A stretch of 64,000 bases of DNA from contig CAZVUK010000001.1 in assembly GCA_964630225.1 (NCBI GenBank), positions 32,088-96,087 of the forward strand, given 5' to 3'. Positions within the stretch are counted from its first letter, which is position 1; every line of letters starts with the position of its first letter. Source of the DNA: an uncultured Muribaculaceae bacterium (lineage in GTDB: Bacteria > Bacillota_I > Bacilli_A > RF39 > UBA660). Made by a program: the position numbers. Below are positions 32,301 through 35,300 of the stretch, one piece after another.

Positions 32301-35300
32301 ATGGAAAATTTAAAGATTAATTTTGTTGATGAACAATTTTTAAAAAGGGATGGAATTTTTGATAAAGATACAGCTCTTACTTTAGGTGGAAGAATTGCCG
32401 GTGTTTGTTATGACAAAGAAGGGTATGATAATTTATTAAAAGAGCCACTTAACAAAACTCAAAAAAGAATCGAAATAACTCTTAATAATGGTCATCATAG
32501 TGTATACGATCATGTGAATATCCGATTCAACATTCAAAATATTCCAAAGATACTAGCGATGGTAATTAACAACGAAAAACAGTATAGCACAAGCGAAAAA
32601 TCAGGTAGGTATACCCCGGTTGTTCGTAGTGAAAATTCGACAATCAGTGAAACTGAAGAATATTTATATGATAAATGGAAAAACTTGTTGGCGATTGAGA
32701 TAAAAGAAAAATATCCAGAGTTTAATGAAGGCAAGATAAACAAACTAGCCCAAGAAAATGCTAGATATATGGTCTCGGTTTTTGTGCCAGCACAAATGAT
32801 ATATACGACATCATTAAGACAGATCAACAACATCGCAGCCCTATTTGAAAAATATATTGGAGATCACAAAAATGATTATTTTGAAAATAGACTTTCATTT
32901 GCAATGAGTGAGATGCTTGTTGAACTTTTGAAACTTAATGTTTTGGAGCCCGCCCTTATGGCTAACGAAAAAGCTCGAAGTTTAAGTCTTTTCAAAAAAC
33001 AAAAAGAGGAAGATGAAATTTATAGAAACATATATTCAACAAATTATGATGCCTCATTTACTCAATTAGCTCAAGCTCATAGACACAGAACACTTGATTA
33101 CTCGATGTATAGAAAAGAAACCAAAACTTATTATATACCACCGATAATAAGGGAAAATGAAGTATTATCCAACGCTTGGTTAAATGATCTTCAGCTAGTA
33201 GAAGACCTCGTCCCTCAAGCAGAAATGGTCAGAGTAAATGAAACAGGTAAATATGAGGACTTCATATTAAAAGCTAAAGAAAGACTGTGTACTCATGCTC
33301 AGCTTGAAATAGCAATGCAGACAAAAGAAACGCTCGAAAAGTATAAAGAAGCCTTGATCGAAGCTGATCACTATTTAAAAAATGACATATTTAAGTATGA
33401 TAAAGGGGCAAGATGCACTTTCCCAGATTATAAATGTCCTAGTGATTGTGGCTTTGTCGAAGGAAAAAGACTAGTTAGAAAAATATAGGTAATTGGTGCC
33501 AACTAATTACTTTTTTCTTTCAAAAATATGACTAATGAATAAAAATATAGTATAATGTATTTATCCAAGAAAGGAAAAATACTATGAGTTTTGAAGCAAA
33601 AATAGGACAAATTAGTGAATATATAGAAAAAAGCAAGACCATATACATAATGATGCATACAGATAGCGACTTGGATGCAATAGGCTCAGCTATAGGTTTA
33701 GCCGATTATTTTAAAAGAAAAAGAAAAAATTGTGTAATAATTAACGATGATAGGCGAATGGAAAGTGGTGTCAGAAAAGTATATAACACCTTTAAAACAA
33801 AGTTTAACTTTTCACGAAGTACAGGACTAAACTCTAAAATCACCAGCGATGATTTACTTATGGTTTTGGACACTAACAACCCCAAACTGATAGGTAATAA
33901 AGAACTACTTGAGAAATTCAAGACCGTTATTAACATCGATCATCATGATGAAAGTAAGCAAGTAATAAAAGCTAATTTGAGCATAATCGATGATATGGCT
34001 TCGAGTACTAGCGAAATGATTGCCCAGTTTATAAGTTACGATGGAAAGTTAAATGTTAGTCCAGAAGTAGCAACCGTTCTTTTAGCGGGTATCGTTCTTG
34101 ATACCAATGCTTATGCGATTAAGACAACAGAAAAGACATTTACCTGTTCGGCTTACTTGATGAGTTGCGGTGCTGACAACAAAGAAGTTCAATACCTTCT
34201 CAAACAAGATTTAAAAGAATATATGCAAAGACAAAAAGTTATCAGCAGCGTTAGAAATATTCACGGAATAGCTGTATCTAAAGGAATGCAAAGAATTGTC
34301 TACAGACGAGAAGATCTAGCCAAAATAGCCGATAGTTTACTTTTCTTTAGCGATATTAAAGCTTCTTTTGTCGTAGGTAAAATATCAAAAAACGAAATTG
34401 GAATAAGTGCTAGATCATATGGTGAAATAAATGTTGGAAAACTTCTCCAAGTATTTGGGGGAGGTGGAGACGAAGAGGGAGCCGCAGCCAGAATAGAAAA
34501 TTCTAATGTCGAAGAAGTATATAAAAAATTAATAGTAAAATTAAAAGAAATTAGGTGATATAATGAAAGTTATCTTCCTTAAAGATTTAAAAGGCCAAGG
34601 AAAACGAGGCGAAGTAAAAGATGTAGCGGATGGTTATGCACAAAACTTTTTAATAAAAAAAGGTATAGCCGAACAGTTAACTAACGAATCATATTCTAAG
34701 TATGAAAGAGAAAAACAGCAAGAAGCTATTAATGATAGTTTAATGCGTCAAGATGCTGAAAAAACAAAAAAACAGCTTGAGAGTTTAACTTTAGTTTTCA
34801 AAGTAAAAACCGGTACCGACGATAAAGTATTCGGAAGCATCAGCAGTAAACAAATCAAAGAAGAATTAGAAAAACACGATATCTTAATAGATAAAAAACA
34901 CTTGAAAATGCAAGACTCAATAAGTAGTCTTGGGCAACACAGTGTAATAATAGAGATATATTCAAATATATCAGCAACACTCAAGATAAAACTTGAAAAG
35001 TAGGAGGCATATGGCTTTAAAGAGCATACCTAACAATATAGAAGCTGAAAAGTCAGTATTAGGTGCGATGTTTATTTCAAACTCGGCACTACAAAAGGCT
35101 TGTGAGGTTTTATACAAAGAATCATTCTACATGAATAGTCATGCAGTTATTTTTGATGCATTAAAAAAGATGTATGATGAAAACGTACCTATCGATGCAA
35201 CGACGGTAACAACGCATTTAAAAAACGCCGGCACATTAAAAGATGCTGGTGGCGTTGAATATATAACTGAAGTCTTAGATTCAGTTCCAACAGCGGCAAA

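Follow-up and report, generated by a model that had tools for sequence, protein, structure and literature searches.

Flavin-dependent thymidylate synthase (FDTS, or ThyX; PF02511, COG1351) is an alternative thymidylate synthase and an antibacterial target, represented among others by Thermotoga maritima TM0449, Mycobacterium tuberculosis Rv2754c, the Helicobacter pylori enzyme and PBCV-1 A674R. A review of the solved structures describes an active site made of residues from three subunits (PMC6514825). In the M. tuberculosis numbering used there, subunit A contributes the RHR triplet (95–97), which binds the phosphates, the ribityl chain and the isoalloxazine ring of flavin adenine dinucleotide (FAD), as well as Arg199, which contacts deoxyuridine monophosphate (dUMP); subunit B contributes Ser71 and Arg190, which bind the FAD phosphates; and subunit C binds and covers dUMP through Arg87, the backbone of Gln103, Ser105, Arg107 and Tyr108. 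The RHR triplet comes from another subunit than the S-x-R-Y loop (PMC6514825), and two arginines are essential for dUMP activation (PMC7226160). Here we describe a gene at positions 32301..33488 (+ strand) of a 64,000-nucleotide stretch of contig CAZVUK010000001.1 (hereafter the window), from an uncultured Muribaculaceae bacterium, whose 395-amino-acid product contains one complete and one truncated ThyX-fold domain. We consider it probable that this protein is a functional flavin-dependent thymidylate synthase, converting dUMP and methylenetetrahydrofolate (CH2-THF) to deoxythymidine monophosphate (dTMP), and that it belongs to a distinct ThyX subclass in which two fused ThyX-fold domains have degenerated in complementary ways.

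Canonical ThyX is a homotetramer of ∼220–250-residue subunits with four active sites, whereas the protein studied here is a single longer chain in which both halves are recognizable as ThyX. The whole protein scores 65.7 bits against Pfam Thy1 (PF02511; cutoff 24.8, E 6e-18), matched in two stretches. Scanned alone, the N-terminal half matches Thy1 profile positions 15–163 (E 1e-13) and the C-terminal half positions 66–187 (E 5e-4). Domain 1 (residues 1–211; 32301..32933, +) has the complete ThyX fold, as judged from the Thy1 match and from the order of secondary-structure elements in an AlphaFold2 model, with the RHR triplet replaced by N-E-K. It is followed by a linker (residues 212–244; 32934..33032, +) that is devoid of regular secondary structure at a predicted local distance difference test score (pLDDT) of 54–69, and that is variable, its alignment columns being poorly conserved. 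Domain 2 (residues 245–356; 33033..33368, +) is a truncated ThyX fold, identified by the Thy1 fragment match, AlphaFold2, Foldseek and an alignment to Corynebacterium ThyX. Its elements run beta3-alpha3-RHR-beta4-alpha4-alpha5-beta5-alpha6-alpha7, which is the second two-thirds of the ThyX order; the N-terminal beta1-beta2-alpha1-alpha2-GH segment, the S-x-R-Y loop and an equivalent of R165 are missing.

The AlphaFold2 model of the whole protein has a pLDDT of 73 and a predicted TM-score of 0.76, and a separate model of residues 232–395 has a pLDDT of 69. Foldseek with the former retrieves ThyX and PolB structures only, and with the latter only ThyX structures within the top 50, at probabilities of 0.98–1.0. 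Among domain-2 fragments of diverged relatives, 27 of 45 match Thy1 (best E 1.4e-9) and none matches any other Pfam family. In an alignment to Corynebacterium ThyX, the RHR triplet of domain 2 is followed by the FY-x-P strand and then by the helix R-x-x-x-x-A-x-x-E-I, the sequence of motifs being that of the canonical enzymes. It is because of the Thy1 fragment matches, the exclusively ThyX Foldseek result and this motif order that we regard the C-terminal region as a truncated second ThyX domain. A sequence-only reading of the same DNA had described it as an extra region absent from ThyX enzymes, which is misleading for residues 245–356.

Residue mapping by HMMER alignments distributes the three subunit roles over the two domains. 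In domain 1, GHHSVYDH (residues 64–71; 32490..32513, +) is equivalent to ThyX GH-x-S/T-x-x-E-H, and its S67 aligns with M. tuberculosis Ser71, the FAD-phosphate ligand of the subunit B role. The stretch NEKQYSTSEKSGRY (residues 91–104; 32571..32612, +) is a degenerate ThyX motif in which the RHR positions are lost, being occupied by NEK (91–93), while SEKSGRY (98–104) retains the dUMP loop with E99, S101, R103 and Y104; the domain also retains H65, K83, E152, R155 and R173. In domain 2, QAHRHRTLDYSMYRKE (residues 258–273) holds HRHR at 260–263, and Q258-A-H-R261-H262-R263 (33072..33089, +) aligns to the RHR triplet of solved ThyX enzymes, which by alignment assigns to it the subunit A contacts with the FAD phosphate and ribityl, with N1 of the isoalloxazine and with dUMP. 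Further on, K-E-R328-L-C330-T-H-A-Q-L-E-I (33276..33311, +) is the equivalent of the ThyX R174-x-x-x-H-A-x-x-E-I helix; R328 stands opposite R199 in an alignment to M. tuberculosis residues 171–216, and the Corynebacterium alignment agrees.

Sorted by role, the A residues (R261/H262/R263 and R328) fall entirely within domain 2, and the B residues (S67 and R173) and C residues (K83, E99, S101, R103 and Y104) entirely within domain 1. The two dUMP-activating arginines, which we take to be R90 and R174 of T. maritima, have their equivalents in R103 of domain 1 and R328 of domain 2, and both are retained. In T. maritima numbering the set of FAD and dUMP contacts (RHR, R174, S/T55, R165, E86, S88, R90 and Y91) is complete, spread over both domains according to subunit role. 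Neither domain has a contiguous RHR-x7-8-S: domain 1 reads N-E-K-x7-S, and domain 2 has R-H-R with no S-x-R-Y after it, so that, unlike in canonical ThyX, the signature is split between the domains. All the motifs listed in the sequence-only reading (GHHSVYDH, NEK, SEKSGRY and HRHR) are present in the translation. Its HRHR does lie downstream of NEK, though the RHR is 170 residues away rather than ∼150, and its description of a protein lacking the canonical RHR holds for domain 1 but misleads for the chain as a whole, since domain 2 carries both RHR and the R174-equivalent arginine. The same reading had allowed that its motif alignment might be wrong and the active site intact. The motif observation itself stands, and yet the site is probably intact, assembled across domains, because canonical ThyX takes the RHR and this arginine from a different subunit in any case.

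This division of labor is conserved. In a sample of 128 family members with 32–56% identity to the query, RHR is found in domain 2 of 119 and at the corresponding domain-1 positions of none, where relatives have NEK, NER, NEH, SLQ and others. The domain-1 position of R174 is hydrophobic, and RHR together with the R174 equivalent is absent from domain 1 in 128/128. Domain 2 further conserves Q258 (117/128) and R328, C330 and E336 (127/128 each). Domain 1 conserves H65 (127/128), S67 (118/128), K83 (127/128), E99 (125/128), S101 (127/128), R103 (127/128), Y104 (124/128), R155, the equivalent of T. maritima R147 (127/128), and R173 (106/128). The full FAD and dUMP contact set is thus conserved at 106–127 of 128.

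We hypothesize that the two domains divide among themselves the roles that identical subunits share in the canonical enzyme. In a 222-symmetric tetramer each subunit would act as A in one site, as B in a second and as C in a third. In the fused protein domain 2 would supply the A role only, with RHR on the FAD phosphates, ribityl and isoalloxazine and the R174-equivalent arginine polarizing dUMP, and domain 1 would supply the two remaining roles: as B, S67 and R173 would hold the FAD phosphates, and as C, K83, E99, S101, R103 and Y104 would bind and cover dUMP. Two chains would then form a pseudo-tetramer, that is, a dimer of fused pseudo-heterodimers, with a dimer axis exchanging the two domain-2 positions and each site combining a single domain 2 with both copies of domain 1. 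Such a dimer would have a mass of ∼92 kDa. Since the A role is open to domain 2 alone, and the B and C roles to domain 1 alone, two sites would be complete, and the two that would need domain 1 in the A role would be inactive. The number of sites expected per pseudo-tetramer is therefore two at most, compared with four in canonical ThyX.

The main evidence for dUMP as the substrate comes from the gene neighborhood in relatives. We clustered the open reading frames (ORFs) flanking the family gene in 80 related loci and annotated the recurrent clusters with Pfam. Thymidylate kinase (Tmk) directly adjoins the family gene on the same strand in 11 of them, upstream or downstream depending on the locus, with a gap of at most 54 bp or an overlap, and it lies directly downstream again in a further locus, L082. 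Dihydrofolate reductase (DHFR) follows 19–61 bp downstream in 8/80 loci (L051, L054, L056, L058, L068, L073, L074 and L079, with DHFR at ∼7135–7704 in each). FolD occurs within 1.2–3.2 kb in 7 loci and deoxycytidine monophosphate (dCMP) deaminase within 1.3–2.4 kb in 6. Between them, these enzymes provide dUMP and CH2-THF and use up dTMP, which argues for dUMP as the substrate. An association with thymidylate and folate metabolism is thus present in relatives, whereas such neighbors are absent from the window studied here.

The placement of DHFR beside the family gene resembles a thyA-folA arrangement and is unexpected for ThyX, whose chemistry releases tetrahydrofolate and not dihydrofolate. 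Folate salvage or an altered redox cycle may lie behind the pairing. Two other neighbors recur in this sample. A ∼296-residue radical-SAM protein lies immediately upstream on the same strand in 13 loci (for example L056 4883–5773, L074 4920–5816 and L073 4981–5874); it matches Pfam Radical_SAM and Fer4_12, and its match to the NrdG2 activase is weak and below the cutoff. A protein of the spore-photoproduct-lyase family follows DHFR in 8 loci.

Several observations call for caution in accepting a functional, two-domain thymidylate synthase. That the residues meet in a single pocket, and how the two chains would be arranged, is deduced from the published symmetry and the conservation pattern, and our literature searches found no biochemical or genetic data for any family member. 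The protein reaches only 40.7 bits against TIGR02170, the NCBIfam thyX equivalog, whose cutoff is 87.9. Both AlphaFold2 models are of moderate confidence (pLDDT 73 and 69), with motif loops below 50. Searches of PDB sequences with the protein, the family profile and a domain-2 profile returned no more than marginal ThyX matches (E 0.04–1), which are not significant alone and were used for residue mapping. A profile comparison of the domain-1 half with the domain-2 half by hhalign showed no significant similarity; because the halves do not match each other directly, the duplication is inferred through the match of each to ThyX. Pathway neighbors occur in a minority of loci only, the eight DHFR loci look like one clade, no conserved operon partner was found (no neighbor occurs in more than 13 of the 80 loci), and in the window itself the neighbors spoVG and the DHH protein are uninformative on function.

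Of the three readings that the sequence-only reading had left side by side (a rearranged ThyX, a regulatory pseudo-enzyme, or a ThyX-fold enzyme acting on a different nucleotide), the evidence favors the first. The strongest of the competing explanations, although in our judgment an improbable one, is a ThyX-fold flavoenzyme that methylates or otherwise modifies C5 of another nucleotide, such as uridine monophosphate (UMP), dCMP or cytidine monophosphate. Its precedent is PolB (PDB 4p5a/4p5b), a ThyX paralog that methylates UMP or dUMP in polyoxin biosynthesis. PolB, however, is a single-domain protein with an intact motif encoded in an antibiotic gene cluster, whereas the present family is two-domained, stands in a housekeeping or dTMP-pathway context in reduced genomes, and shows no antibiotic-type cluster. 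The canonical dUMP-contact residues are all retained, the recurrent adjacency of Tmk, DHFR, FolD and dCMP deaminase fits the supply of dUMP and CH2-THF and the use of dTMP, and the gene lies among housekeeping genes near the origin, in a family found in 505 species with reduced genomes. A different substrate is weakened by these observations and keeps a small share of the probability.

A dead ThyX derivative with a regulatory or nucleotide-sensing role would account for the broken RHR-x7-8-S in both domains, and could be seen as fitting neighbors, spoVG and a DHH phosphoesterase, that are regulatory or signaling-type genes. It is contradicted by the near-invariance, at 32–56% identity, of the residues of one complete site, split just as the three-subunit geometry predicts: one would not expect a dead enzyme to have kept RHR, the Ser/Tyr pair and both dUMP-polarizing arginines, and the association with the thymidylate pathway also speaks against it. 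We hold this explanation to be very unlikely. Scarcely any weight remains for an ordinary homotetramer of a canonical ThyX domain with an unrelated C-terminal extension and a chance HRHR, which we rejected on the domain-2 evidence. The Thermus thermophilus Thy1 structure (PDB 6j61), titled as "having an Extra C Terminal Domain", offers a precedent, and the hhalign result agrees with it; but the C-terminal half alone matches Thy1 66–187 and only that family, a search with its model gives nothing but ThyX structures among the top 50, and its motifs, from the RHR through the FY-x-P strand to the R-x-x-x-x-A-x-x-E-I helix, keep the canonical order. Moreover, were domain 1 to form a homotetramer, the known mode of FAD binding and dUMP activation would not be available to it, because RHR and the R174 equivalent are absent from that domain in every member of the sample. 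T. thermophilus Thy1, which is among the structural matches, likewise consists of ThyX plus added C-terminal sequence; to judge from the PDB title, it has an extra domain on a canonical enzyme, whereas the added part of the present protein is a ThyX-like domain in its own right and holds essential active-site residues.

The closest parallel to a fused enzyme with partitioned motifs that we can offer is the monomeric dUTPase of herpesvirus type, in which an oligomeric enzyme with multi-subunit sites has been duplicated and fused, its motifs partitioned and the number of sites per fold unit reduced. Fold and chemistry are unrelated, and the likeness to the present family is an analogy only. If our hypothesis of a functional ThyX with divided domains holds, the family is a natural experiment on an active site that has so far been dissected mainly by mutagenesis: three subunit roles would be placed on two domains, half of the sites would be gone and the rest would be asymmetric, which could be useful for studying half-of-sites behavior and electron delivery.

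The family is large and discrete. Relatives of ∼400 residues numbered 3,930 in a word-indexed search; where a name is given, it is "FAD-dependent thymidylate synthase" or "thymidylate synthase ThyX", and in one case "hypothetical protein". When 1.84 billion cluster representatives were searched exhaustively with the family profile, there were 788 matches, 379 of them below 1e-30, nearly all of 380–420 residues and aligned end to end. We regard the family as a discrete ThyX subclass because the profile does not reach canonical ∼220-residue ThyX. NCBI and Logan assemblies contain a protein identical to the query. Members are carried by 505 GTDB species representatives with reduced genomes, almost all of which are uncultured, and the two-domain form is common among anaerobes of this kind; the hosts include metagenome-assembled genomes of gut "Bacilli" and "Tenericutes", Christensenellales-type Clostridia, "Clostridium sp. 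CAG:914", "CAG:492", Saccharibacteria and Dojkabacteria. Assembled genomes with the gene include the contigs CAKPSD010000001.1 (1.03 Mb) and JBMNHC010000001.1 (0.72 Mb). Phage homologs were absent from the searched collection. In hundreds of uncultured lineages with small genomes (RF39-like Bacilli, Christensenellales-type Clostridia and Patescibacteria), dTMP is apparently made by way of this family. Since the equivalog model misses the family and one member is labeled "hypothetical protein", metabolic reconstructions could wrongly call thymidine auxotrophy in such organisms.

We found no account of a fused, two-domain or split-motif ThyX in the literature searched. The sequence-only reading had considered that the family might be an already characterized subclass, for which we found no publication, the databases giving only the generic "FAD-dependent thymidylate synthase". 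The enzyme class is known, inasmuch as databases recognize Thy1, while the layout in two domains, the way in which the active site is divided and the set of cysteines described below appear to be unreported. Chlamydial ThyX is ∼530 residues long. In one paper chlamydial ThyX sequences were reported to be too divergent for phylogenies.

The taxonomic spread is qualified by record titles. Close relatives at loci L002, L010, L013, L015, L041, L047 and others are titled "uncultured Muribaculaceae", "Methanosarcinales archaeon" or "Candidatus Saccharibacteria", and such titles look unreliable, being given to co-assembly bins with Bacilli-like sequences. A few members are longer (P0139, P0196, P0213 and P0223; 474–529 residues), with a charged, coiled-coil-like N-terminal extension of 70–120 residues or a long insertion before the cysteine-containing tail; P0213 and P0223 (521–529 residues), both unnamed proteins from metagenomes, have the motifs of the family together with insertions. 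Two candidates for split genes were discarded. P0212 (L082 307–1071), a domain-2-only ORF with an unrelated 63-residue N-terminus that follows a pseudouridine-synthase fragment, is a probable chimera on a contig of 1.7x coverage, and P0172 (L083 425–1589) reflects a frameshift in a contig of 3x coverage; the single-domain versions in these two loci are probably assembly artefacts.

Beyond the two domains the family has a feature that canonical ThyX lacks, namely five near-invariant cysteines and a C-terminal tail. C36 (32406–32408) lies in domain 1, C330 (33288–33290) two residues after R328, and the remaining three in a cysteine-rich tail (residues 365–395; 33393..33485, +) recognized by its conservation, as C372-x6-C379-x3-C383 (33414–33449). 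Each of the five is found in 122–128 of the 128 sampled members (C372 in 122, C379 in 128 and C383 in 126), and all of them together in 119. The tail has a pLDDT below 50 in both AlphaFold2 models, as is common for metal-dependent loops, and contains no CxxC knuckles. This conservation suggests a candidate metal site, either structural zinc or an iron-sulfur (Fe-S) cluster. The literature searches gave no paper that connects ThyX with Fe-S. A rather speculative extension, to which we give a modest chance, is that the cysteines bind an Fe-S or other redox-active metal in an anaerobe-specific ThyX that would receive its electrons from ferredoxin or flavodoxin and not from NAD(P)H; alternatively, the enzyme might run a redox cycle releasing dihydrofolate, which would explain the thyA-like pairing with DHFR in some relatives. 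Should the set prove to bind Fe-S, this would be the first metal-dependent ThyX, as far as our literature searches show.

The gene model and its surroundings agree with what had been read from the sequence. The ORF starts with ATG at 32301 and encodes 395 amino acids exactly as claimed, preceded by a strong ribosome-binding site, AAGGGAGG (32288..32295, +), with a 5-nt spacer to the ATG. Its position between spoVG and a DHH phosphoesterase near the origin is likewise borne out: SpoVG is encoded at 31975–32256 on the 5' side and a DHH/DHHA1 protein at 33584–34558 on the 3' side, and KsgA is also among the neighbors. DnaA is encoded at 8065–9414, dnaA and dnaN together occupying 8.1–10.6 kb (8065–10645). 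Beside them, at ∼8 kb (7599–8064), the GC and AT skews flip sign, and around this switch the upstream genes lie on the minus strand and the downstream genes on the plus strand. The switch is likely to be the replication origin, and given DnaA, DnaN and the change of GC skew near 8 kb the ThyX-like gene lies ∼24 kb from it. Directly 3' of the spoVG stop, a consensus scan found a 10-bp hairpin with 3 G-C pairs (32256..32278, +), which on its sequence may be a weak candidate for a terminator or an attenuator-like element; such scans found 2 sites of this type where 1.8 were expected.

ThyA, DHFR and Tmk were absent from the scanned ORFs of the window, and neither ThyA nor a second ThyX was found in the window and ∼0.9 Mb of related loci (0.97 Mb in all). 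The window does encode uracil-DNA glycosylase (Ung), which fits thymine-containing DNA. At 19756–21118 holB (DNA_pol3_delta2) comes immediately after recR, without an intervening tmk; in Firmicutes tmk usually precedes holB. The 324-residue DHH/DHHA1 protein is encoded upstream of rplI, and its best match, well short of the cutoff, is to the DHH part of a model named "bifunctional signaling protein/ribosomal protein L9", with a still weaker match to NrnA; it looks like a stand-alone remnant of a GdpP-rplI arrangement. There are no tRNA genes anywhere in the 64 kb. Two other structured RNAs are present, a small bacterial signal recognition particle RNA at 16800–16890 (63.6 bits) and an L31-Firmicutes ribosomal leader at 53445–53475, whose 33.4 bits are just at the threshold.

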